21,552 bases of DNA from a virus (lineage: Duplodnaviria > Heunggongvirae > Uroviricota > Caudoviricetes), in IMG/VR virus record IMGVR_UViG_2718218127_000003; one strand, written 5' to 3'. Below the pieces are notes generated by a model. It was not told the origin of the DNA. It worked only from the letters and a program-made list of their open reading frames with translations, and searched no databases. Below are positions 228 through 21,552 of the stretch, piece after piece (within the stretch, counting starts at the first letter, position 1; each line of letters begins with the position of its first letter). A program made the position numbers and the translations under genes.

Positions 228-971
228 TCAGATTCCCTGGTGAGTAAGAATTTTACTTTCTGAACTCCTCTGAGAGTATTGACTTGGAGAAACACCAAAA
301 TAACGTCTAAATACATAAGTAAAGTATGAGACACTGGCATAACCACAGACCTTAGCTACTTTACTAATAGGATAACAACGAGTGCAGAGTAAATATTCAG
401 CCATTTGCATCCTCTCATCAAGTATGATCTTACTGAATGATACCCCCTCTTCTTTCAATTTCCTCTTTAGTAAACTTTCGCTGAGATATAATCTTGATGA
501 TATATCCTTAAGACGCCATGGTGCAGATAAATCCGTATGAATAATCGTTTTAACTTTAGCCCCTGTGCTTTTCAAACATTCAAACAGAAATACTCCAAAT
601 TGTTTTTCAGAAGAAAATGCAGAGAGACATGTAAAAGCAATAGACTCATCAAAAATTTCTATGTATTCAGCACAGTGATTAGCCCAACTAATTAATCCTT
701 TAATTAAACTGAAGTCAGCAAAGTTTATTTTTAAATAAGATGGATATTCCCTACAATCAGAAATTTCCCTTAAGTTATTAGCTTTCAAATAGCGACTAAT
801 AAACTCAGCGCCAAAATCCGCCACTATCACTCTTTCAGGATATGTCAGGAAAAAATCTCTAGAGCTAGAGTCGACAAGTACAGATGAACCTCTCTCCAGA
901 AACACACTCTCTTTTCCGAAATAAACATCAAAGGACTCCAAAATCAATATAACTGAACATGTAGTTGCCAT
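228..971 (-). CDS. AraC/XylS-family transcriptional regulator, AppY/EnvY-like (247 aa from the ATG)
   Basis: The C-terminal HTH region (...WRLKDISSRLYLSESLLKRKLKEEGVSFSKIIL...CGYASVSYFTYVFRRYFGVSPSQY) is typical of small AraC regulators such as AppY, EnvY and YdeO. The ATG at 969-971 is preceded by GGTGGA. The gene is AT-rich. Confidence 0.8.
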   Translation of the reverse strand: MATTCSVILILESFDVYFGKESVFLERGSSVLVDSSSRDFFLTYPERVIVADFGAEFISRYLKANNLREISDCREYPSYLKINFADFSLIKGLISWANHCAEYIEIFDESIAFTCLSAFSSEKQFGVFLFECLKSTGAKVKTIIHTDLSAPWRLKDISSRLYLSESLLKRKLKEEGVSFSKIILDERMQMAEYLLCTRCYPISKVAKVCGYASVSYFTYVFRRYFGVSPSQYSQRSSESKILTHQGI

Positions 972-1555
972 ATCATCCACCCAACTTAACTGAAACCAGG
1001 ATGAAGTATATGCATATAAAGTTCACTTTGCCAAACTTCAGTATAAAAAACCACATAAAAAATAGGGTGTGATAAAAAATACCGTAACAATAAAGCAAAG
1101 GATTATAAATTCCGTTACAGTTACAAATGATACTCAAGAAACAATTCCTTAGGAAAAACTTATTTACAGCCAATAAGTAAGACACTTATATGATATCAAG
1201 TTTTCATAAAACATAACTAGGCTAAATAGCTGCGCCTAATACCGCTACACTTTTGCCAGCCCATGTTTGCCTCCGGGTATTGACCCCTTCTCTACGCAAC
1301 TTCAGTTCCTACCACCAACTTTGCGGCAGCTTTGTAGGATCAATGTCTAAAAGAATAATGGTGACCGATAAGAAAACGACTGAATAACTGCAAATTTTCG
1401 CTCAAAACCTTCCTGTCAGATCCATAGCGAATCAAGTGCTGAATGTCACAGTATCGAACAGAAAACAGTGACGATCTAACCCTTCAAGAATATTCTACGA
1501 TTGTTCTGTTTAGGAAAAGCAAGGCGGGAAGTCGGGAGATAAGTCATTGATAAAG

Positions 1556-2475: not shown

Positions 2476-3057
2476 TTACCCTATAGGTGCTACTGGCCAT
2501 TCAATATCCGGAGCAGTTGTTGTATTAACACGGTTCAGCAACACCCGATACTTTTTCCAGGCTTCCAGCAACGAGTTTTCTTCCTCCGTTGCGATTTCCA
2601 GATCTACAGCATCCTGAAGTGGCGCAATATGCTCATTCGCTGCCTGCATCAGGCTGTTTTTTGTTTCTTCCGCCTCCCGGATCCGGAATAGTTTTTCTGC
2701 TTCTGCATCTTTCACCCAGGCTGTGCCGTTCCACTTCTGAAACTCCCCTTCCGGGGATAACCAAGTGGCATTTTCCGGTAACGGACCGAGTTCAGAAATA
2801 AATAACGCGTCGCCGGAAGCCACGTCATAAACCGTTTTACCCCGATGATCTTCAACGAGATGCCACGATGCCTCATCACTGTTGAAAACAGCCACGAAGC
2901 CTGCCGGAATATCTGGCGGTGCAATATCGGTACTGTTTGCTGGCAGACCTGTATGAGGCGGAATATATGCGTCACCTTCACCAATAAATTCATTAGTTCC
3001 GGCCAGCAGATTATAAATTTTTATGGTCCGTGGTTGTTCACTCATTCTGAATGCCAT
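2476..3057 (-). CDS. Phage tail fiber assembly protein (Tfa)
   Basis: The N-terminus [54 protein letters not shown] is characteristic of lambdoid Tfa chaperones. The ATG overlaps the stop of the upstream stf fragment (TAATG). Confidence 0.85.
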
Positions 3058-3297
3058 TATGCAAGCCTCACAATATAGTTAAATGCGATGTTTTTGACGG
3101 TGTTTTCCGCGTTACCAGCAGCGTTAACGGTGATGGTATGTCCATGTGAACCAATCGCAACGGAGTGCGTATGAGCACCAATACCGACAGTATGTGCGTG
3201 TGCACCTGCGCTTGCAGCAGTACCCGATACAGAGTGCGTATGAGCGCCTGCAGAAGAAGTGTTAACACTGTATTTAGAATAATCAGGTGATCCACTT
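3057..3297 (-). pseudogene. Side tail fiber (stf) gene, 3'-terminal remnant of about 80 codons
   Basis: My own translation of an alternative minus-strand frame gives ...[79 protein letters not shown], the (G)AHTHSV-repeat C-terminus of lambdoid side tail fibers. There is no start codon; it is fused upstream to the nu1 fragment. Confidence 0.7.
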
Positions 3298-3625
3298 CCA
3301 CCACTTCAGCGGAGTCTCTGGCATTCTTCAGTTCCTGTGCGTCGGCCTGCGCACGCGTAAGTCGATGGCGTTCGTACTCAATAGTCCCTGGCTGGAGATC
3401 TGCCTCGCTGGCCTGGCGCAGTTCTTCAACCTCCCGGCGCAGCTTTTCGTTCTCAATTTCAGCATCCCTTTCGGCATACCATTTTATAACGGCGGCAGAG
3501 TCATAAAGCACCTCATTACCCTTGCCACCGCCTCGCAGAACGGGCATTCCCTGTTCCTGCCAGTTCTGAATGGTACGGATACTCGCACCGAAAATGTCAG
3601 CCAGCTGCTTTTTGTTGACTTCCAT
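3296..3625 (-). pseudogene. nu1: Terminase small subunit Nu1, N-terminal 110 codons only
   Basis: [110 protein letters not shown] matches lambda Nu1 as I recall it. After codon 110 the frame runs into out-of-frame stf sequence (the listed 185-aa ORF is a chimera). Confidence 0.85.
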
Positions 3626-3968: not shown

Positions 3969-4661
3969 ATGTCCAGAGAAGGAACGTTAGATTTATTGCA
4001 AGAAGTTGAAGAAACCGTTGAAATATTAAAAGATACGCAACAAATAAAACCAGTAAAGGTTAAATCAATACTTGAAAATTTAAGAAGCGCATTAGAATAC
4101 GTTGCGAATGATAGTTATGAAAAACATACCACTAACCAATCAACCCCTCGGCCAAAAATTTATTTCCCATACGGCGAGAAAAAATTTTTAGATGCTTTCT
4201 TTATTAAAAAATTAAACTGCCAGCAACCTGAATTATCTCCATTATATGCAGTTTTTGTTTCAATCCAAGACTATCAAACTGGTAATAACTGGCTTGGAAT
4301 GATGTGTAACCTCACGAACGAAGTAAAACATAGGAAACCAATCCCATTGAGTGAAGATAGTATTGTTCGAGGAATAGATGTTAATATCAATGGGTTTGGA
4401 TTAATTAAGACAGATGCTACATCAAAAATCATTTTCAGAGATAATTTCACCAATGGACAGAGAATTGAAGACTTCACCATTGAAAATGGTAAAGTTGAAA
4501 AATCAGGGAACGGAATCCCCATCAATATTAACATAACCGAAGAGAAAAAAATAAGATTCCACGGTACAGATTATGAGGTCATTCCTTTTGTAGAGTTATG
4601 TCTAAAAGAAATAAGAGATTTTGTTAATGAAGCATATGAAATTTTAGATGCCATTGAATAA
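3969..4661 (+). CDS. Hypothetical protein, 230 aa, no recognisable domain; gene at the bor position between Rz and cos
   Basis: ATG at 3969 is preceded by GGAG with 7-nt spacing. The gene is AT-rich relative to its neighbours and lies on the strand opposite the late genes. The product is hydrophilic with no signal peptide. Confidence 0.7.
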   Translation: MSREGTLDLLQEVEETVEILKDTQQIKPVKVKSILENLRSALEYVANDSYEKHTTNQSTPRPKIYFPYGEKKFLDAFFIKKLNCQQPELSPLYAVFVSIQDYQTGNNWLGMMCNLTNEVKHRKPIPLSEDSIVRGIDVNINGFGLIKTDATSKIIFRDNFTNGQRIEDFTIENGKVEKSGNGIPININITEEKKIRFHGTDYEVIPFVELCLKEIRDFVNEAYEILDAIE

Positions 4662-5924: not shown

Positions 5925-6164
5925 ATGCAAAAAGAAGTTTTTATCAATATTACAGCTGACTGCTCATCTCCTGCATCAACAGCAAAAGAAATTGAAGCTC
6001 TTAAATATATGATTACAGTAATATTTACCGTATTGGACCAGAATGAAAAAAATGGAATCATTCATCAATTAAATGAACATGTAAATAATCCATATATCAA
6101 AAGCAATCTGGAAATGTTGCTACCAATGAAAGATATTGGAAAACCAACTGAAACAAAAGGCTAA
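5925..6164 (+). CDS. Small hypothetical protein (79 aa) inserted in the lysis cassette on the opposite strand
   Basis: ATG at 5925 is preceded by GAGGA with 6-nt spacing. The gene is AT-rich and has no recognisable family. Confidence 0.45.
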   Translation: MQKEVFINITADCSSPASTAKEIEALKYMITVIFTVLDQNEKNGIIHQLNEHVNNPYIKSNLEMLLPMKDIGKPTETKG

Positions 6165-6479: not shown

Positions 6480-6695
6480 TTACTCTCCCCGTGCAGCCTT
6501 GCGCTTATCTTCTTTAATCTTGAAATAAAGGTTTGTCAGGTACGTCAGCAGGCCAAATACCAAGCTACCCAGCACACCTATTGCTGCCCACTGTGAGGGC
6601 GTGACTTTATCGAGCAGCTGTAAAAACCAGTAGCCAGCACTGCCTGCGGAGGTGCCGTAGGCAATGCCCGTTGTTAACTTATCCATGGATTTCAT
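6480..6695 (-). CDS. Class II holin, phage 21 S (pinholin)-like, with a dual-start motif
   Basis: [71 protein letters not shown], 71 aa, with Met1 and Met4 (antiholin/holin starts). Strong SD GGAGGTG. Confidence 0.85.
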
Positions 6696-6786
6696 AGCCT
6701 CACCTCCGCAAATAACGGATGGTGTACACGGTTCGGAACGAAGAGGAAAGGTATAGAAGTTACATTAGCGTAAGGCTTGAACATCT

Positions 6787-6821
6787 ATTCAAAAAGAAAA
6801 ACGCCAGCGATTATTCTGGCG
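6787..6821 (-). terminator. Intrinsic terminator downstream of the AraC-like gene and upstream of the holin
   Basis: On the minus strand: CGCCAG-aataatcg-CTGGCG followed by TTTTTCTTTTTG. Confidence 0.55.
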
Positions 6822-6888
6822 TAGCTGAAAGCATCATACAATTATCAAATACGAAAATTACAAAATCATTAAAACGCATCACGTTACA

Positions 6889-7614
6889 TCATGTCTTTTC
6901 TAAAAAAAATCTTGATGAATATTGATGGGGAGGAACACCAAAATATCTTCTGAAAACACTTACAAAATATGACGTGTTTTCATAACCGCATATCTCAGTA
7001 ACTTTTCCAACAGAATATAAATTGTAGCTTAATAACCTTTCCGCCATCACCATTCGCTCTTCAAGAATTAACTTACTAAATGATAAGCCTTCGTGCTTTA
7101 ATTTTCCTTTTAACAGACTTTCACTCAGATACAGTCTTGAAGATATATCACAAAGTCTCCATGCTGCAGATATATCCGTGTGAATAATAGCCTTAACTTT
7201 ACTTCCTAAACTATTAAGACATCCAAATAAAAAACTTTGCACTATTTTCTCTGAAGATAAGATAGCAAGACATGCAAGTGATATTTGATTTCTAACAAAA
7301 TCCACAGTTCTGCCATCACAATTCAAGCATGCAATCAAGTTCTTTAACAATGAAAAATCTTCACATTCCACCATCAAGTATGCCGGATAAAACCTTCTTA
7401 CAGAAAAAGGTGAGAGTGTGTTGCTTTTAAAGAAATCATTAACTGTTTTCTCTTCAACATCTACGATCATTGCATGATCTATATTTGATGAAAAAAAATC
7501 TTTTAAATTGTAATCAATGAGAACAGCACTTCCTTTTTTAAATAAAATATCTTCTTTACCAATTCGGACATCAAACGAGTTCAACACCAAAATGATAGAA
7601 CATATGTATGGCAT
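6889..7614 (-). CDS. AraC/XylS-family transcriptional regulator, AppY/EnvY-like (241 aa from the ATG); paralog of 228..971
   Basis: ...WRLCDISSRLYLSESLLKGKLKHEGLSFSKLILEERMVMAERLL...CGYENTSYFVSVFRRYFGVPPHQYS. ATG at 7612-7614 is preceded by AGGTGG. The gene and its 350-bp upstream region are AT-rich. Confidence 0.8.
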   Translation of the reverse strand: MPYICSIILVLNSFDVRIGKEDILFKKGSAVLIDYNLKDFFSSNIDHAMIVDVEEKTVNDFFKSNTLSPFSVRRFYPAYLMVECEDFSLLKNLIACLNCDGRTVDFVRNQISLACLAILSSEKIVQSFLFGCLNSLGSKVKAIIHTDISAAWRLCDISSRLYLSESLLKGKLKHEGLSFSKLILEERMVMAERLLSYNLYSVGKVTEICGYENTSYFVSVFRRYFGVPPHQYSSRFFLEKT

Positions 7615-7965
7615 ATTATCCACCTGATATCATTGGGGTTACACCAGGTAAGTATAGGTGGAAAATCAATATTCGCCAGTTCAACAATAAGGAAAATCTC
7701 ATTGCATCACAAGTATAAAATTATGTATTTAACTCACAAAGACAAATTATTAAACCAATCTGTTATATTATATATAGCTGCGTGGAATCATAATATTATA
7801 TATTTTGACTGGCATGTTTACCAACTTTAAGTTGCATCTCAATGGTTTCTTCAGCGTAAACAGAGTTTTTATACAAACTGACACTCTGGGTATCATAGTG
7901 TAGTTTTTACGATTGTAAATATCCTGCATGCAGGAACTCATCCTTTTGGATGATATCGCATACAA

Positions 7966-8925
7966 TTAATTTACCATCAGTCTTAGAGCCAGTTCGTCCG
8001 GATAGGGATCGAAGTAATTCTGTGTAAGCAAGTAATCATTAGGATACTCACCCAGATAATGCTTCAGCAGAGTCAACGGCGCAAGAAGAGGTAATGTGCC
8101 AGAACGATAGTTAAGTATAACCTCGCTCAACTCTTTACGCTGGCGTGTACTTAAGTAGTTACTAAAATACCCCTGTATATGCATCAGCACATTCGTGTGA
8201 TTTTTACGTGATGCAGGTTTTCTGAGAATCGCCATCAGCTTATCACGATACACCTCAAAGTATGATTCAAGGTCCGCCCACTCGTGTATTGCAGCCACAA
8301 ATGGTCCCATATCTTTATAGCCTGCCTGACTATGCGCCAACAACTGAAGCTTATAACGACTATGAAAAGCTAATAACTCTCTTCTTGATAATTTCTCCTT
8401 GTAAAGGTGATTGAGCTCATGCAAAGCAAAAACTCTTTCAACAAAATTCTCACGAAGCACTGGATCATGTAATCGCCCATCCTCTTCAACCGGTAGCCAG
8501 GAAAACTTTTCCATCAAAGTGCTCGTAAATAGTCCCACTCCATCTTTACGACCTCGATTACCATTTTCATCATAGACACGCACGCGCTCCATGCCACAGC
8601 TGGGAGATTTAGCACAAACCACAAACCCCGATACATCCTTTAATTTGTCCATATAAGAACGACTAAACTCTGTCATTCTCTCTGTCACATCCTCATTCTG
8701 GTCGTGGCTGAAACACATCCGAATATTTCCTTGCGTCGAGCGCACAAGACGTAGAGCAGGACGCGGAACTGGCAGCCCTATAGCCATTTCCGGACATACT
8801 GGTCTGAATGTTACCCATTCCACTAATTTGTCCATTAAAAAGTCAGCTCTTTTGTGACCACCATCAAAACGAACAGCAGAACCGGCCAGACAACCGCTGA
8901 TTCCAATCACAGGTTTTTTTATCAT
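7966..8925 (-). CDS. YbgA-family protein: N-terminal DUF523 (TudS-like, Cys-rich) fused to C-terminal DUF1722
   Basis: MIKKPVIGISGCLAGSAVRFDGGHK...PVCPEM...VVCAKSPSCGME carries the conserved cysteines and SPSCG motif of the DUF523/thiouracil-desulfidase family, with a helical C-terminal half. Strong SD GGGGGAGG. Confidence 0.75.
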   Translation of the reverse strand: MIKKPVIGISGCLAGSAVRFDGGHKRADFLMDKLVEWVTFRPVCPEMAIGLPVPRPALRLVRSTQGNIRMCFSHDQNEDVTERMTEFSRSYMDKLKDVSGFVVCAKSPSCGMERVRVYDENGNRGRKDGVGLFTSTLMEKFSWLPVEEDGRLHDPVLRENFVERVFALHELNHLYKEKLSRRELLAFHSRYKLQLLAHSQAGYKDMGPFVAAIHEWADLESYFEVYRDKLMAILRKPASRKNHTNVLMHIQGYFSNYLSTRQRKELSEVILNYRSGTLPLLAPLTLLKHYLGEYPNDYLLTQNYFDPYPDELALRLMVN

Positions 8926-9117
8926 ATCCTCCCCCTTGACTAATTCATTAACACATAAACTGTGTAGTGCACGGAATAAATTGCCTTTCTGGCGTCATCA
9001 CTGACAATTTTTCTGTTATGGACTATTCCTAATATAGTATGAAAGTTCTTTAAGTGATCGGTCGTAATCATCTATCTTTCATACTTACTCTCAACTATCA
9101 AAAGTACAGGATTTATT

Positions 9118-9642
9118 ATGAAGTTATGGCCTGTGTTGACTGGCATTGCACTCTCTTTCACTCTTATAGCATGTAAGGCCCCGACACCACCTAAAGGTGT
9201 GCAGCCGATTACAAATTTTGACGCCAACCGCTACCTCGGAAAGTGGTATGAAATAGCTCGCCTCGAGAACCGGTTCGAACGTGGTCTGGAACAGGTCAGC
9301 GCTACTTATGGAAAACGGAACGACGGAGGGATTCGTGTACTTAACCGTGGATACGATCCAACGAAAAATAAATGGAGCGAGAGCGAAGGTAAAGCATACT
9401 TTACTGGAGATACTAAAACTGCAGCGTTGAAGGTTTCGTTTTTTGGCCCCTTCTATGGTGGCTATAATGTAATCAAACTGGATGATGAGTATAAGTATGC
9501 TCTTGTCAGTGGTCCGAACAGAGAATACCTATGGATTCTGGCAAGGACCCCAACTATTCCAGATAAAGTAAAAGCAGACTATGTGCGAACCGCTCAAAAG
9601 TTGGGATTCAATGTCAATGAATTATTATGGGTTAAACAATAA
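9118..9642 (+). CDS. blc: Outer-membrane lipocalin lipoprotein, Blc family (paralog-like, prophage-borne)
   Basis: Lipoprotein signal MKLWPVLTGIALSFTLIAC, then ...NFDANRYLGKWYEIARLENRFERGLEQV...GKAYFTG...LKVSFFGPFYGGYNVI...YLWILARTP..., the bacterial lipocalin signature. Confidence 0.85.
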   Translation: MKLWPVLTGIALSFTLIACKAPTPPKGVQPITNFDANRYLGKWYEIARLENRFERGLEQVSATYGKRNDGGIRVLNRGYDPTKNKWSESEGKAYFTGDTKTAALKVSFFGPFYGGYNVIKLDDEYKYALVSGPNREYLWILARTPTIPDKVKADYVRTAQKLGFNVNELLWVKQ

Positions 9643-9667
9643 AATCCCTACCCGAAATAATACTTAT

Positions 9668-9697
9668 TAGAAAAAAACCAGCCTTTGGGGAGGCTGG
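9668..9697 (-). terminator. tR'-like intrinsic terminator about 100 nt downstream of Q
   Basis: On the minus strand: CCAGCCT-ccccaa-AGGCTGG followed by TTTTTTTCT. The position matches the lambda pR'-tR' unit on which Q acts. Confidence 0.55.
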
Positions 9698-9797
9698 CTA
9701 AATCAGGAAACAAGCTGTTATATGATAATAACTACGTTGCGATTCCAACATTTAAAATGTTAGACTAATGAGAATCAGACAGCAACTTTTCCTTTAA

Positions 9798-10175
9798 TTA
9801 TTTCGAACAATCAGCATCCATCTCCAATCGGAGATCCAACACCATCAGCATACCCTCCACTACGCCCTCAGCTTTCTGGAGCATCCTGCCAACCCAACAA
9901 TCAGATCGCCCATGCTTACGTGCAAGCGCCATAAAAGTCATGCCGCCGACATAATAGTCCACCAATAAATCGTGCAAATCGCTGTTGTTCTTTTTCAGAC
10001 GGGCCATGCACCCGCAAATGATCATCGCGTCATCGTCACAACATTGCGGGCGAGATTTTACTTTTGAAGGAATTAATCCCTTAAAACCGGCGGCAATGGA
10101 CGACCAGGTCACATCTTCATGATTATTAGCCGCCCATGCTCCCCAACGCTCCAGAACCATCTGAATATCACGCAT
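9798..10175 (-). CDS. Late-gene antitermination protein Q (phage 82/21 type, QuuD-like)
   Basis: [76 protein letters not shown]... The ATG at 10173-10175 is preceded by GGAG; the TTG 4 codons upstream used by the ORF track is less likely. Confidence 0.85.
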
Positions 10176-10192
10176 CAACTTTCTCCACAAAA

Positions 10193-11188
10193 TCAGGCCA
10201 GCACACCAATCGCCAGCGCACGATCGATAAAACGAAATATCAGCTCCAGCTGGGAGCCATACTTCTCTTCAAATGCCACGGTATCCGCATGCAGCTCGTC
10301 GTGATGCTTTCTGCACAAAGGCAACACAAAAAGGTCATGCGCTTTTGTACCCATTCCACCCTGACCGTGGCCTATCAGGTGATGGGGATCATCGGCGGGC
10401 TTTCCACAACATGCACACGGCTGCGTCTTAACCCAGCGCGTGTACTTTTCATTAACCCAGCGGCGACGTTTTGGGCGTAACATAAAAGACTCCGGCGACT
10501 CCGGCTCCACTTTCAGCGCCAGCACCTTTTTCGCTTTATCCTGGATGATGCTGGTGGCAGGAACCGAAGGAACAAGATCACTTTCCCGGGTGACAGACGG
10601 CACAACAGGCTTCGGTAATCTCAGTGCCTTACGGGCTGCACTTTCCGGTAAGGCATCCGCCAGGTCATTACGAACCAGCCACCAGCACAGTTCCGGCATT
10701 GTCACAACGTGACTGTCATCAAAACCGAGATCCCGACGCACGACAGACAACACCCAGCGGGCACAGTTATCCGTTGCCATTGATTCCAGCCGTTCCGTGA
10801 ACTGATCGCGCAGCTGGTTATCGCAGTGCCAGCACAGACGGATTGCGCCCGGAGCGTGTCGCATTGTGGTCATGTTCTCGCTGTGCCAGTCGGAATGAGG
10901 CCACTGGCAGCCTTTTTCACGAAGTAACCAGCTTTCAAGACATTCCACGCCACCAGCACGACGGATCACCGCCTCATTGCGGAACACAGACCGAACGGCA
11001 GGATCATCCGCCAGTGGTTGTAATGCCGCCGGAACGGCACCACTGGAAAAAGATGAATAATGTTCCGGCTCAGGCTCCAGCAGGACACGCCCCTGCATAA
11101 ACAGGGGCATCAGCTCTGAACCGGGTCTGAACAATACGATCCCCATACGCGGGGCAACTTCAGGGGTCAGTAGTGCTCTCACGGTCAC
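10193..11188 (-). CDS. DUF968-family prophage protein (YdfU-like) with a C-terminal HNH-like Cys/His motif
   Basis: C-terminus ...[47 protein letters not shown]. It lies immediately upstream of Q, as ydfU does in Qin. The start is GTG and uncertain. Confidence 0.7.
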
Positions 11189-11189
11189 C

Positions 11190-11763
11190 TCAATGAACGG
11201 TATCGAGCAGCTTTAACAGCTCAGGGAATCGGGATTCGAAGAAATGCGGCTGCGTCTCGCGCGGATTTGCGGGACTGGTGATATTCTTGCCGAACATGCA
11301 GCCTTTCGCTGTCAGCGACCAGAATTTTTTGATGTTGTTAATCGCGGTACGGCTGTATCGTTCGCGCTGCTCGACGATCCCCAGCTTCACCATCTGGTGA
11401 TATGCCTGATTAGCTGTCAGGCGGATACCATACTGCTTCAGCAGTGCACTCAGTGACAGCGTGGGGCGGCTTGAGCCATCAGGCGCGTCAGCAGGAGCAT
11501 CAATGGCATAGCGCGGTGCCAGATTCGGTACCCTGGCGACGCGCCTTACGCGTTAACCAGCCTTCTGCTTCCAGCCGTGCGATAGCCGTCCTGACGGTAC
11601 TCATCCCCGCGCCAATCTGACGGGCAATAGTTTCAATTGATGGCCAGCACACACCTTCGTCATTACTGAAATCAGCCAGGCGGGCCATAATTGCCACGCT
11701 GGATAATTTCATGCCTGATGCAGCGCAACCATCCCATACATAGCCGGTTAATTTAGTGCTCAT
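11190..11763 (-). pseudogene. Helix-turn-helix phage protein (replication/regulatory-like), apparently frameshifted near 11500-11520
   Basis: The 87-aa ORF (MSTKLTGYVWDGC...RLEAEGWLTRKARRQG) stops at 11500, and protein-like sequence continues in another frame (RYAIDAPADAPDGSSRPTLSLSALLKQYGIRLTANQAYHQMVKLGIVEQ...) into the 67-aa ORF ending at 11190. Confidence 0.5.
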
Positions 11764-17475: not shown

Positions 17476-17497
17476 GATGGCTTAAAGAGAGGTGCCC

Positions 17498-17748
17498 ATG
17501 AGCGGTAAGCGTTATCCCGAAGAGTTTAAAACTGAAGCAGTCAAACAGGTTGTTGATCGCGGTTATTCTGTTGCCAGCGTTGCAACACGTCTCGATATCA
17601 CCACCCACAGCCTTTATGCCTGGATAAAGAAGTACGGTCCGGATTCTTCCACTAATAAAGAACAGTCAGATGCTCAGGCCGAGATCCGCCGTCTCCAGAA
17701 AGAGCTGAAACGGGTTACCGACGAACGGGACATATTAAAAAAAGCCGC
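17498..17748 (+). pseudogene. IS3-family OrfA (HTH), interrupted by IS30; the last 9 codons resume at 18972-18999
   Basis: MSGKRYPEEFKTEAVKQVVDRGYSVASVATRLDITTHSLYAWIKKYG...ILKKAA, then after IS30 AYFAKLSD*. Confidence 0.8.
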
Positions 17749-18969
17749 TGTAGATTCAATTGGTCAACGCAACAGTTATGTGAAAACATGGGGTTGCGGA
17801 GGTTTTTTGAATGAGACGAACATTTACAGCAGAGGAAAAAGCCTCTGTTTTTGAACTATGGAAGAACGGAACAGGCTTCAGTGAAATAGCGAATATCCTG
17901 GGTTCAAAACCCGGAACGATCTTCACTATGTTAAGGGATACTGGCGGCATAAAACCCCATGAGCGTAAGCGGGCTGTAGCTCACCTGACACTGTCTGAGC
18001 GCGAGGAGATACGAGCTGGTTTGTCAGCCAAAATGAGCATTCGTGCGATAGCTACTGCGCTGAATCGCAGTCCTTCGACGATCTCACGTGAAGTTCAGCG
18101 TAATCGGGGCAGACGCTATTACAAAGCTGTTGATGCTAATAACCGAGCCAACAGAATGGCGAAAAGGCCAAAACCGTGCTTACTGGATCAAAATTTACCA
18201 TTGCGAAAGCTTGTTCTGGAAAAGCTGGAGATGAAATGGTCTCCAGAGCAAATATCAGGATGGTTAAGGCGAACAAAACCACGTCAAAAAACGCTGCGAA
18301 TATCACCTGAGACAATTTATAAAACGCTGTACTTTCGTAGCCGTGAAGCGCTACACCACCTGAATATACAGCATCTGCGACGGTCGCATAGCCTTCGCCA
18401 TGGCAGGCGTCATACCCGCAAAGGCGAAAGAGGTACGATTAACATAGTGAACGGAACACCAATTCACGAACGTTCCCGAAATATCGATAACAGACGCTCT
18501 CTGGGGCATTGGGAGGGCGATTTAGTCTCAGGTACAAAAAACTCTCATATAGCCACACTTGTAGACCGAAAATCACGTTATACGATCATCCTTAGACTCA
18601 GGGGCAAAGATTCTGTCTCAGTAAATCAGGCTCTTACCGACAAATTCCTGAGTTTACCGTCAGAACTCAGAAAATCACTGACATGGGACAGAGGAATGGA
18701 ACTGGCCAGACATCTAGAATTTACTGTCAGCACCGGCGTTAAAGTTTACTTCTGCGATCCTCAGAGTCCTTGGCAGCGGGGAACAAATGAGAACACAAAT
18801 GGGCTAATTCGGCAGTACTTTCCTAAAAAGACATGTCTTGCCCAATATACTCAACATGAACTAGATCTGGTTGCTGCTCAGCTAAACAACAGACCGAGAA
18901 AGACACTGAAGTTCAAAACACCGAAAGAGATAATTGAAAGGGGTGTTGCATTGACAGATTGAATCTACA
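17749..18969 (+). mobile_element. IS30, complete (1221 bp) with a 2-bp GC target duplication
   Basis: Ends TGTAGATTCAATTGGTCAACGC... and ...GACAGATTGAATCTACA. GC is present on both flanks. Confidence 0.9.
17811..18962 (+). CDS. insI: IS30 transposase (383 aa)
   Basis: MRRTFTAEEKASVFELWKNGTGFSEIANILGSKPGTIFTMLRDTGG... through the DDE domain to the IS30 end. Confidence 0.9.
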   Translation: MRRTFTAEEKASVFELWKNGTGFSEIANILGSKPGTIFTMLRDTGGIKPHERKRAVAHLTLSEREEIRAGLSAKMSIRAIATALNRSPSTISREVQRNRGRRYYKAVDANNRANRMAKRPKPCLLDQNLPLRKLVLEKLEMKWSPEQISGWLRRTKPRQKTLRISPETIYKTLYFRSREALHHLNIQHLRRSHSLRHGRRHTRKGERGTINIVNGTPIHERSRNIDNRRSLGHWEGDLVSGTKNSHIATLVDRKSRYTIILRLRGKDSVSVNQALTDKFLSLPSELRKSLTWDRGMELARHLEFTVSTGVKVYFCDPQSPWQRGTNENTNGLIRQYFPKKTCLAQYTQHELDLVAAQLNNRPRKTLKFKTPKEIIERGVALTD

Positions 18970-19055: not shown

Positions 19056-19868
19056 GTGCTGGATGTTCATCCCAGTGGTTTTTACGCCTGGCTTCAGCAG
19101 CCGCATTCACAACGCCATCAGGCAGACCTGAGACTGACAGGACAGATTAAACAGTTCTGGCTGGAATCGGGATGCGTCTATGGTTATCGCAAAATCCATC
19201 TGGATTTGCGTGACAGCGGGCAACAGTGCGGAGTAAACAGAGTCTGGAGACTGATGAAACGTGTCGGAATAAAGGCTCAGGTCGGATACCGAAGCCCGCG
19301 GGCACGTAAAGGCGAGGCCAGTATCGTGTCACCCAACAGGCTCCAGCGACAGTTCAATCCGGATGCTCCTGATGAGCGTTGGGTAACGGACATAACCTAC
19401 ATCAGGACCCACGAAGGCTGGCTGTATCTTGCCGTTGTTGTTGATCTGTTCTCACGCAAAATTATCGGCTGGTCCATGCAATCCCGGATGACAAAGGACA
19501 TTGTCCTGAACGCACTGCTGATGGCTGTATGGCGGCGTAATCCCGAAAAACAGGTGCTGGTTCATTCGGATCAGGGCAGTCAGTACACAAGCCATGAGTG
19601 GCAGTCGTTCCTGAAATCACACGGCCTGGAGGGTAGCATGAGCCGTCGCGGTAACTGCCATGATAATGCGGTTGCAGAAAGTTTTTTCCAGTTGTTGAAA
19701 CGTGAACGGATAAAGAAAAAGATCTACGGAACGCGGGAAGAAGCCCGCAGTGATATTTTTGATTACATCGAAATGTTTTATAACAGTAAGCGTCGGCATG
19801 GTTCTAGCGAACAGATGTCACCGACAGAATATGAAAACCAGTATTATCAACGGCTCGGAAGTGTCTAG
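19056..19868 (+). CDS. IS3-family OrfB transposase (rve/DDE domain); the 5' part overlaps orfA and is normally reached by a -1 frameshift
   Basis: ...WVTDITYIRTHEGWLYLAVVVDLFSRKIIGWSM...LVHSDQGSQYTS...GNCHDNAVAESFF... Confidence 0.85.
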   Translation: MLDVHPSGFYAWLQQPHSQRHQADLRLTGQIKQFWLESGCVYGYRKIHLDLRDSGQQCGVNRVWRLMKRVGIKAQVGYRSPRARKGEASIVSPNRLQRQFNPDAPDERWVTDITYIRTHEGWLYLAVVVDLFSRKIIGWSMQSRMTKDIVLNALLMAVWRRNPEKQVLVHSDQGSQYTSHEWQSFLKSHGLEGSMSRRGNCHDNAVAESFFQLLKRERIKKKIYGTREEARSDIFDYIEMFYNSKRRHGSSEQMSPTEYENQYYQRLGSV

Positions 19869-19964: not shown

Positions 19965-21221
19965 TTACTGATAGTCATCAGCAAGTCCGCTACTAAATAA
20001 CGTTTCTGCATTTTCAGCGGTAGCAACAGCATCCTGCACATCCTGCCGTTTCAAATCTAACACTCGTAATTTACCCTTTACTTCGGCGACAGATTCGATT
20101 CGCCTGTAAGCATCAGAATGATGTTCGGCATATAGCGCAAGTCCTTCCAGTTTGGGCAAAGCATCAGCCAGATGTAGGCTATGTGGATCTACCAGGTCCA
20201 CAACCATTTTGCCATCCTGTTCGGCAAAGAACAGGAAATCGGGACGAACAATCTTGTACTGTTCAGCTTCAACATAAGCGATTCCCAGTGACGACTGCCC
20301 TGTGTACTGTGGATTACGATACCAGAAAGCAAATCCTTCACGTTTGGTTTCGATCTCAAAAACCTTGGTTTCCCAATGGTTCAACAGAGCCGGATAGTTC
20401 CCGCTTTCGTCACACAACAAATGGTGTTTCCAGACTGGAAGGTCAGCTTCCTTTTCACCTTCACGCACCCTGGTCATTTCAAACTTGTTCGCCGGCCTGA
20501 CCAGATCCACATCCTGCGGTTCGGTACTCATTTCGACGATTTGACGATAGGCCTCTTTACGCTCATCTTTCAACGACTTGATTTGCGGTGTGTACTCGGC
20601 CAGCCACGCCTTCGCCAGTCTATCGGCCTCGCCATCGAAGTAATCCTGCACCTCCATCACCAGCCCCATGCCAGCAACGGTAACACGAGCCTCCATGATT
20701 GCTTCCAGATATTCCTCTGCATCCTCTTCTCGATCCGCAACCTTATCGGCCAGATATTCGACATAGGTACGTGAAACATCCGGGCTGAAAATTCGGGCTG
20801 CACGCCGGTAGGCGTCATCAATCACCGTTACGTCCGCCTCCTCCCAGAATTCGTTGAAGGTCATTGCTTTGTTCTTGAGGCTGGCAACCACAGCCTTACC
20901 ATCTACGACGAGCACTGCATTGCGTTTGTTTTTGATTTTCTCGGCATTTTCTATCTGGAACTTGTCCAGAACAGCGTGCAAAGCAGCATGGGCTTTCCTG
21001 ACTGCCCCATCAAGAATACCGTCATCAACCAGTTCCTGTGCCAGCGCGGTCAGACGTCTGGCGGGTCTGGCTCCTTTCTGTGGTCGGGTTTGCGAAGGTA
21101 GCGCTTCAAATGCTTCCCATACTTCAGCTGAAGCAGCCGGGTTAGGTTTCATCTCCACAGGGTTAACCAGGATGCGTCCGCTTGGAGGAGAGGTATCATC
21201 GCCCTTAAACAAGGTATTGAC
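19965..21221 (-). pseudogene. 3' portion (at least 415 codons) of a large gene of unknown function; the 5' part is separated or removed by the IS1 insertion
   Basis: The reading frame is open right up to the IS1 left inverted repeat at 21222, where the only in-frame stop lies inside IS1. The first codon in the ORF track is TTG, with no credible start. The C-terminal region ...YKIVRPDFLFFAEQDGKMVVDLVDPHS... is faintly nuclease-like. Confidence 0.55.
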
Positions 21222-21552
21222 GGTGATGCTGCCAACTTACTGATTTAGTGTATGATGGTGTTTTTGAGGTGCTCCAGTGGCTTCTGTTTCTATCAGCTGT
21301 CCCTCCTGTTCAGCTACTGACGGGGTGGTGCGTAACGGCAAAAGCACTGCCGGACATCAGCGCTATCTCTGCTCTCACTGCCGTAAAACATGGCAACTGC
21401 AGTTCACTTACACCGCTTCTCAACCCGGTACGCACCAGAAAATCATTGATATGGACATGAATGGCGTTGGATGCCGGGCAACCGCCCGCATTATGGGCGT
21501 TGGCCTCAACACGATTTTCCGCCATTTAAAAAACTCAGGCCGCAGTCGGTAA
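21222..21552 (+). mobile_element. IS1, left end and insA; truncated by the window edge
   Basis: Left inverted repeat GGTGATGCTGCCAACTTACTGATTTAGTGTATGATGGTG begins at 21222. Confidence 0.85.
21277..21552 (+). CDS. insA: IS1 InsA (91 aa)
   Basis: [59 protein letters not shown]..., with a GTG start as in IS1. Confidence 0.9.

Follow-up and report, generated by a model that had tools for sequence, protein, structure and literature searches.

What does a temperate phage gain from carrying, beside its lysis genes, an enzyme that erases a tRNA modification? The question is posed by a 21,552-nucleotide stretch of Caudoviricetes DNA (IMG/VR record IMGVR_UViG_2718218127_000003; this whole stretch is hereafter the window), in which three cargo genes separate the antiterminator gene Q of a prophage from its holin gene: blc, for a lipocalin; rudS, for a protein of the RudS family; and araC, for an AraC-family regulator. 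A sequence-only reading had placed this cargo at 6787-9697, and the limits that we find agree with it to within a few bases. Our answer, which we consider rather probable, is that the three genes form a widespread moron cassette of the E. coli Q-holin slot, composed of a RudS eraser of 4-thiouridine (s4U) and a blc gene from a MerR-regulated light-stress cluster, to which a PatE-like regulator was added. The identities of the genes, the residues of their products, the anatomy and origin of the cassette, its prevalence and the purifying selection on it are matters of observation. Its parts are already known: published work covers the RudS enzymes, among them a phage orthologue that is nearly identical, as well as blc as a moron and the family of the regulator, and since the cassette is already annotated in roughly one-fifth of complete E. 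coli genomes, it is not novel. Of interest are its prevalence in E. coli, which had gone unrecognised, its descent from a MerR-controlled light-stress cluster, and the fact that purifying selection maintains an eraser of a tRNA modification next to the lysis genes of a temperate phage; the beneficiary may be the lysogen or the induced phage.

A RudS enzyme beside the lysis genes

Gene calls are those of the open reading frame (ORF) listing combined with Pfam scans of the window, whose late strand is the minus strand. The rudS gene, at 7966-8925 on that strand, encodes 319 residues in which Pfam and orthology assign a TudS/DUF523 [4Fe-4S] domain followed by a DUF1722 tRNA-binding domain. A DUF523-DUF1722 protein of this length had been proposed from the letters of the sequence, and the domain search recovers both parts, each far over its gathering score: PF04463 (2-thiouracil desulfurase/DUF523) at residues 7-149 (E = 3e-40) and PF08349 (DUF1722) at residues 192-309 (E = 2e-40). 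Fusions of TudS with DUF1722 have been named RudS and remove s4U from tRNA (Jamontas et al., NAR 2024; PMC11417400). One of the six enzymes tested in that work, RudS_vir, is gp66 of Escherichia phage 1H12 (YP_009909557), with cysteines 12, 44 and 110; when overexpressed it lowered the s4U content of E. coli tRNA, as determined by liquid chromatography-tandem mass spectrometry. Aligned with RudS_vir, the window protein shows 93% identity across its full 319 residues, with 21 substitutions and no gaps, and the two share their length, the three cysteines and the flanking order Q-blc-rudS-araC-holin. RudS_vir is the assayed protein, whereas the window allele, 21 substitutions apart, is known from sequence. 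Judged by these alignments the 319-residue window protein is a member of the RudS family, and by analogy with its 93%-identical tested orthologue it would be expected to convert s4U in tRNA to uridine.

The residues on which such an activity depends are in place. The cysteines that the sequence-only reading saw in CxxG, CPE and SPSCG motifs lie in GCLAG (Cys12), CPE (Cys44, with Glu46) and SPSCG (Cys110, with Ser107 and Ser109), and none of these ligands is lost on alignment: Cys12, Cys44, Cys110, Glu46, Arg55, Ser107 and Ser109 are invariant in 60 of 60 RudS homologues. The three cysteines occupy the cluster-ligand positions of RudS_vir in the gap-free alignment, and two of them, Cys12 and Cys44, match Cys10 and Cys43 in the 6Z92 structure of TudS. 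Glu46, Arg55, Ser107 and Ser109 correspond to E51, R60, S111 and S113 of RudS_KT, a correspondence read from motif offsets against Table 2 of PMC11417400 and not from a direct alignment; mutagenesis in that work found these four residues, together with the three cysteines, to be essential in RudS_KT. The C-terminal half, which is 49% identical to E. coli YbgA, contains long motifs that are likewise invariant among the 60 homologues.

Prevalence and selection

Of 5426 complete E. coli genomes, 1155 contain a match to the 3.1-kb cassette region; in 991 of these the match covers 80% of the region or more, and a single genome may have as many as three copies. The DNA of the cassette also matches 12 isolated phages with the same gene order, and the exact RudS protein of the window is found on at least 1000 contigs. 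Among 80 IMG/VR loci, Q, blc (on the opposite strand) and rudS occur together in every one (80/80), with araC and the holin gene next wherever the contig reaches. The backbones of these loci vary (lysozymes 33-99% identical, DUF968 present or absent); the cassette is tightly linked to a single allele of Q (95-100% identity) and a single type of holin. A minority of cassette copies lack araC, and some copies carry insertion sequence (IS) insertions or truncations; in BL21(DE3), IS3 cuts rudS to 49 codons and the phage blc is intact. This truncated rudS lies at NC_012971.2 1588189-1588335, and BL21(DE3) is the host of the published RudS assays.

The published account of RudS_vir treats its enzymology, not its phage context, expression or prevalence, and calls E. 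coli RudS-free (PMC11417400), a statement made in PMC13602947 as well. That E. coli lacks RudS is true of K-12, not of the species.

Comparison of the window alleles with those of 1H12 gives ratios of nonsynonymous to synonymous divergence (dN/dS) of 0.10 for rudS, 0.06 for blc and 0.27 for araC, at synonymous divergences (dS) of 0.30, 0.20 and 0.37, respectively, indicating that all three cargo genes are under purifying selection.

Origin of the blc-rudS pair

Relatives of the window RudS were gathered with one genome per species; 64 were found, and two E. coli-like contigs from a 'Candidatus Nanosynbacter' metagenome-assembled genome were set aside, leaving 62 Enterobacterales chromosomal loci whose RudS proteins are 66-77% identical to that of the window. 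The two contigs (L055, JARKOR010000151.1, and L060, JARKOR010000135.1) bear the cassette at 94-100% protein identity and are almost certainly binning contamination. In 36 of the 62 loci a divergent blc is followed by a gene for an MlrA-like MerR regulator, a transthyretin-like gene and rudS; 12 others have the order MerR, amine oxidase, DUF1365, cyclopropane-fatty-acid synthase, DUF2878, DUF3833, rudS; and in two, blc and rudS are directly adjacent. We take the cluster of MerR, amine oxidase, DUF1365, cyclopropane-fatty-acid synthase and DUF3833 genes to be linked to photo-oxidative stress. The arrangements with MerR and rudS agree with remarks on E. cloacae by Jamontas et al. (PMC11417400), in which a MerR gene adjoins RudS and pre-exposure to ultraviolet A (UVA) light lowers s4U; the same authors describe Salmonella ORF319/STM1389 as a chromosomal, MerR-linked rudS. 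The Enterobacter, Leclercia and Citrobacter loci share with the phage a RudS of 66-77% identity, a divergent blc (77-82%) and a colinear intergenic region on the blc side, but they alone have the MlrA-like MerR gene, in many cases the transthyretin-like gene or the amine oxidase-DUF1365-cyclopropane-fatty-acid synthase-DUF3833 genes, and a MerR-type box, all of which the phage lacks.

The divergent blc-rudS control region of the window (8926-9117) retains traces of this ancestry. About 97 nucleotides beside blc align colinearly with the region between blc and merR in the chromosomes, and two blocks have survived in this stretch. One is a sigmaS-like -10 element for blc, seen in reverse, which reads CTACACTTA in the chromosomes and CATACTTAC in the phage (9080-9088, plus strand). 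The other is TAnTATATTnnGA, which stands ahead of merR in the chromosomes and ahead of rudS in the phage, where its TATATT (9036-9031, minus strand), which resembles a promoter -10 element, faces rudS; this block is invariant both against the chromosomes and across four phage alleles. The presence of the TATATT block before merR in the one case and before rudS in the other suggests that a deletion of merR and the genes that follow it left rudS behind the former merR promoter. Within the 125 bp nearest to blc, alleles that differ by 0.2-0.3 at synonymous sites share about 96% identity, so that the control region is better conserved than synonymous sites.

A palindromic MerR-type box, AATACTTGGACAAA-N8-TTGTGTAAGTTTT, lies about 59 nucleotides (58-113) upstream of rudS in 26 chromosomal loci of Enterobacter, Leclercia and relatives (for example at 7939-7974 of locus L013); it is likely the operator of the adjoining MlrA-like regulator, and we know of no earlier description of it. 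A position weight matrix of 15 distinct chromosomal boxes gives, in the phage blc-rudS intergenic region, a best score of -3.0, as against 0.5 for the 95th percentile of the null and at least 39 for true boxes, and the ORF listing and Pfam scans find no MerR gene in the slot. The idea that MerR control was kept in the phage is accordingly rejected. A likeness to an MlrA box spotted by eye, AAAAATTGTC-N17-GGCAATTTAT, was also dropped, as it scores -20 on the matrix of chromosomal boxes (a matrix distinct from the MlrA consensus of E. coli). When the phage intergenic region is aligned directly with the Citrobacter loci that have adjacent blc and rudS, little conservation is seen; its homology emerges only with the blc-merR intergenic region. 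Taken together, gene content and the surviving blocks indicate that the blc-rudS pair came from Enterobacter/Citrobacter-type chromosomes, where it was part of a MerR-regulated light/oxidative-stress cluster.

A second phage-borne rudS was seen in Citrobacter murliniae (CP163158.1; 8001-8960 of locus L020). It is 73% identical to that of the window, is not accompanied by blc, and lies in a Rac/Qin-like prophage in the order CI-like repressor, YdaT, DUF1376, DnaC-like, PerC, DUF977, rudS, DUF968. It is an independent capture into another, early-right slot, again co-oriented.

The lipocalin and the AraC-family regulator

As the sequence-only reading had it, the first cargo gene after Q encodes a Blc-family lipocalin lipoprotein on the opposite strand (9118-9642, plus strand, antisense to late transcription). 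Its 174 residues match PF08212 (E = 7e-44) and the NCBIfam Blc subfamily model NF007786 (316 bits, cutoff 267), and its translation shows a lipobox LIAC with Lys at +2, MKLWPVLTGIALSFTLIAC|K, which aligns with VVAC|S of K-12 Blc. By these matches it is a Blc-subfamily lipoprotein, for which location in the outer membrane and lipid binding are expected by analogy. It shares the Lipocalin_2 fold and the lipobox with host Blc (b4149), to which it is only 60% identical; it thus differs from the host protein as a second, horizontally acquired and rudS-linked copy, and its identity to the rudS-adjoining blc products of Enterobacter and Leclercia is 77-82%. The phage records with about 89% DNA identity (1H12 and the Lambda_ev/Lambda_2E9 series) presumably belong to the infant-gut collection of Mathieu et al. 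Among their lambda phages from the infant gut, those authors list blc as a moron that more than 50% carry (Mathieu et al. 2020; PMC6969025).

The third gene (6889-7614, minus strand; PF12833/PF00165) encodes an AraC/XylS regulator of the AppY/YdeO/PatE group, with 241 residues from its ATG. The ORF extends to a GTG at 7623, but the ATG at 7614, which stands behind AGGTG, is the likelier start. The C-terminal part is a double helix-turn-helix of AraC type (PF12833 at residues 162-237, and PF00165). Over residues 4-238, N-terminal domain included, the protein is 52% identical to PatE of strain Sakai (ECs_0287) and 31% identical to AppY and to YdeO; it had been called AppY-like, which holds for the group, PatE being the nearer relative. 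The NCBIfam YdeO equivalog model NF007407 matches at full length with 122.9 bits, under its cutoff of 348, and a YdeO orthologue is rejected on that score. The regulator shares size and full-length alignment with PatE (Z0321/ECs_0287), AppY and YdeO, and PatE-group genes are mostly prophage-borne, as is this AT-rich gene; it is, however, the orthologue of none of the three, and by sequence identity PatE appears to be its closest characterised relative. Two reports describe PatE, PsrB and AppY as activators of gadE/hdeA in GAD acid resistance (PMC10877973, PMC10057817), and by analogy the window regulator would probably act in trans on acid-resistance genes of the host. For comparison with PsrA/PsrB one prophage, Sakai Sp6, was looked at, and its annotation contains no AraC gene.

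The AT-rich spacer between rudS and araC (7615-7965, minus strand) contains promoter-like sites at 7919-7892 and 7824-7795, each with 10 of 12 matches, and no terminator; its stretch 7703-7849 cannot be aligned with phage 1H12. Close to one end of the window (228-980, minus strand) lies a second AraC-family gene, the orthologue of the PatE gene: its product shows 98.8% identity to Sakai ECs_0287 and 52% to the slot regulator, and the prophage thus bears two paralogous regulators of the acid-resistance type.

Anatomy of the slot and state of the prophage

The upstream boundary of the slot is Q (9798-10190, minus strand; PF06530, E = 2.5e-51), which RefSeq starts at 10175 to give 125 residues and whose identity to Q from phages 1H12 and IdasGreatGrand is 98-99%; a DUF968 gene lies upstream of it (10193-11188, by ORF listing and Pfam). 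Between Q and the first terminator is an interval (9700-9797, minus strand) in which, as read from the sequence, the late promoter pR' and the Q-loading site would be expected, with a candidate -35 TTGCTG at 9786-9781 and a candidate -10 TAACAT at 9763-9758; its mean column identity over four alleles is 97%. The two terminators placed by the sequence-only reading at 9668..9697 and 6787..6821 are both found on the late strand, each with z = -3.4. The first (9668-9699), just past the 3' end of the convergent blc, is tR'-like, with a 9-bp stem at 9699-9676 followed by T7, a folding energy of -14.9 kcal/mol and a stem that is invariant in four alleles; the second (6791-6822), which closes the cargo upstream of the holin gene, has a 7-bp stem at 6822-6801 followed by TTTTTCTTTTT and a folding energy of -11.3 kcal/mol. 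The scan found no terminator-like site between them. The downstream boundary is a P21/EssD-type holin gene (6480-6695, minus strand; PF04971), beyond which come genes for a DUF1327 protein, a lysozyme and a DUF2514 spanin-like protein.

Homology to the K-12 prophage DLP12 stops at 9816 (quuD, 88% DNA identity) and restarts at 6706 (essD, 92%), which defines the variable slot as 6707-9815. The G+C content within it is 30-33% for araC and 42-46% for rudS and blc, as against 49-57% for the flanking phage genes, and these steps within the cargo suggest at least two separate acquisitions. That the interval between Q and S is a slot for cargo, as stated in the sequence-only reading, is borne out by its occupants elsewhere: nmpC with IS5 in DLP12, and a sialate O-acetylesterase in Sakai Sp6. 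The window slot shows the marks of a lambdoid Q-S moron, namely its position between Q/tR' and the holin gene, foreign composition and a closing terminator, as do stx, the nanS-p esterase of Sakai Sp6 and nmpC of DLP12; it differs from these in that the genes are others and blc runs antisense to late transcription. An Rfam search of the slot gave no match at gathering score, only sub-threshold chance matches, and no tRNA gene was found there. A PADLOC search with the cargo proteins returned zero matches, leaving a defence-system reading unsupported, and in PHROGs all three proteins fall into families of unknown function.

In the rest of the window the tail-fibre, DNA-packaging, KilA-N and helix-turn-helix genes are truncated (3057-3625, 11190-11763) and there is no head or tail module, the truncation calls resting on the RefSeq annotation of a near-identical locus of the same layout in strain MB06022. 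The prophage is a defective remnant, although its Q gene, its cargo and its lysis genes have all stayed intact. Further features of the window include the Rfam element IS009 (RF02111) at 2516-2714 (minus strand), with 212 bits well over the gathering score and within a tail-fibre-assembly gene, and a 230-residue ORF at 3969-4661 (plus strand; 32-33% G+C, no Pfam match, PHROG 13652 of unknown function), which is interrupted by IS1 in strain MB06022 and may be another moron. A 79-residue ORF of low G+C content occupies the gap between the lysozyme and DUF1327 genes (5925-6164, plus strand; PHROG 21218, no Pfam match). An IS3-family element (orfA 17492-17854, orfB 19056-19868) is apparently split by an IS30-like transposase gene (17811-18962); a 415-residue ORF with a TTG start and no Pfam match lies at 19965-21212 (minus strand); and an IS1 fragment ends the window, within 21221-21552.

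Expression and possible function

The s4U at position 8 of tRNA (s4U8) is a near-ultraviolet chromophore: UVA light crosslinks it to C13, leaving tRNA uncharged, and synthesis of ppGpp (guanosine tetraphosphate) and growth delay ensue. In the mechanism that we propose, the DUF1722 domain of RudS would dock the tRNA and the [4Fe-4S] desulfidase would turn s4U8 into uridine; with s4U8 removed, the cell would lose a light-triggered brake on translation. The rudS gene and its divergent blc would have been captured together, with merR and its operator lost, and the AT-rich, PatE-like araC would have joined in a separate event. In the lysogen blc would be read from its own promoter, and rudS probably retains the former merR promoter as a weak promoter of its own. 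Polymerase modified by Q would pass tR', cross blc antisense and read rudS and araC; to arrive at the holin gene it would have to get through the second terminator as well. Late, Q-dependent transcription of rudS and araC is what their position predicts. What we infer in this account is which promoters are used, when the genes are expressed, what the regulator acts on and how phage or host would benefit. Given the promoter-like block before rudS, the promoter-like sites before araC and the defective state of the prophage, expression in the lysogen is at least as likely as lytic expression, and a defective prophage with intact cargo counts toward a role at the level of the host.

A further role may be considered. 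Overexpression of RudS_KT shortened the growth delay after UVA from about 105 to about 60 min, that is, by about 45 min (PMC11417400), and a prophage RudS might similarly disarm the near-ultraviolet sensor of its host, so that no tRNA crosslink, ppGpp burst or growth delay would block SOS induction and late protein synthesis in sunlight. We advance this part tentatively and consider it unlikely; were it true, the capture of rudS in a different slot in C. murliniae would be convergent evidence.

Several points weigh against the account given here. The promoter scan returned 13 promoter-like sites, compared with 10.3 +/- 3.1 in shuffled sequence, and the candidates are weak matches to consensus. 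Q and the lysis genes are intact too, so that an undamaged cargo is not necessarily a sign of selection on the host. Nor is a UVA-related benefit obvious for a gut bacterium. The tRNA activity of RudS_vir was also below that of other RudS enzymes despite high protein levels, and in a uracil auxotroph growing on 4-thiouracil it gave the shortest lag among the RudS proteins (PMC11417400), which together suggest that tRNA may not be its sole substrate.

These last results are what would be expected if the enzyme acted chiefly in salvage or detoxification of thionucleotides, converting free 4-thiouracil, or 4-thio-uridine monophosphate (4-thio-UMP) from tRNA turnover, into uracil or UMP, and it is consistent with this that stand-alone TudS enzymes recycle 4-thio-UMP (PMC10611767). 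However, thiouracil bases are poor substrates of RudS, no RudS equalled TudS in the 4-thiouracil growth assay (PMC11417400), RudS_vir did lower tRNA s4U, and DUF1722 has been retained under strong purifying selection, as the whole-gene dN/dS of 0.10 and the invariant C-terminal motifs indicate; we regard salvage as very unlikely. The thio-desulfidase chemistry proposed in the sequence-only reading accordingly stands on its tRNA side, given s4U removal by the 93%-identical orthologue, and is to be recast for a named family, RudS, that acts poorly on thiouracil bases. Still less would we credit the cassette with being neutral passenger DNA hitch-hiking with a successful Q-holin module, a notion that draws on its tight tie to one Q allele (95-100%) and one holin type and on the IS insertions and truncations, such as the 49-codon rudS of BL21(DE3). 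Passenger DNA is hard to reconcile with dN/dS values of 0.06-0.27 at synonymous divergences of 0.2-0.37, with the keeping of all catalytic residues, with 991 full-length copies among the 1155 genomes, or with a control region better conserved than synonymous sites.

The cassette might instead, as the sequence-only reading stressed, serve the lytic cycle, with Q-driven rudS stripping s4U on induction so that sunlight that induces SOS through ultraviolet B cannot also stall late translation or raise ppGpp. The gene is co-oriented with the late operon with zero terminators from tR' to rudS; Q, cargo and holin genes stand together in all 80 viral loci; the rudS of the Rac-like C. murliniae prophage, without blc, is co-oriented in the early-right region between DUF977 and DUF968; and the loss of MerR control fits a rewiring to phage promoters. 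Yet co-orientation in two cases is weak evidence, having a chance of 1/4, and RudS prevents crosslinks but cannot repair them, so that late expression would follow the damaging light. Bulk tRNA, moreover, is stable, and erasure of s4U needed strong overexpression in the published assays (PMC11417400), while the conserved promoter-like block before rudS and retention of the cassette in defective prophages point to non-lytic expression. On balance a mainly lytic role seems to us somewhat unlikely, and we keep to a moron cassette assembled from a chromosomal light-stress pair and a PatE-like regulator.

Implications

The loss of MerR control from the phage cassette raises the question of how rudS is now regulated. 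The prevalence of rudS means that differences among strains in UVA growth delay, in the s4U content of tRNA or in 4-thiouridine labelling could trace to a prophage gene. If RudS does disarm the near-ultraviolet sensor of its host, the UVA physiology of about one-fifth of E. coli strains would depart from that of K-12 by way of that gene.

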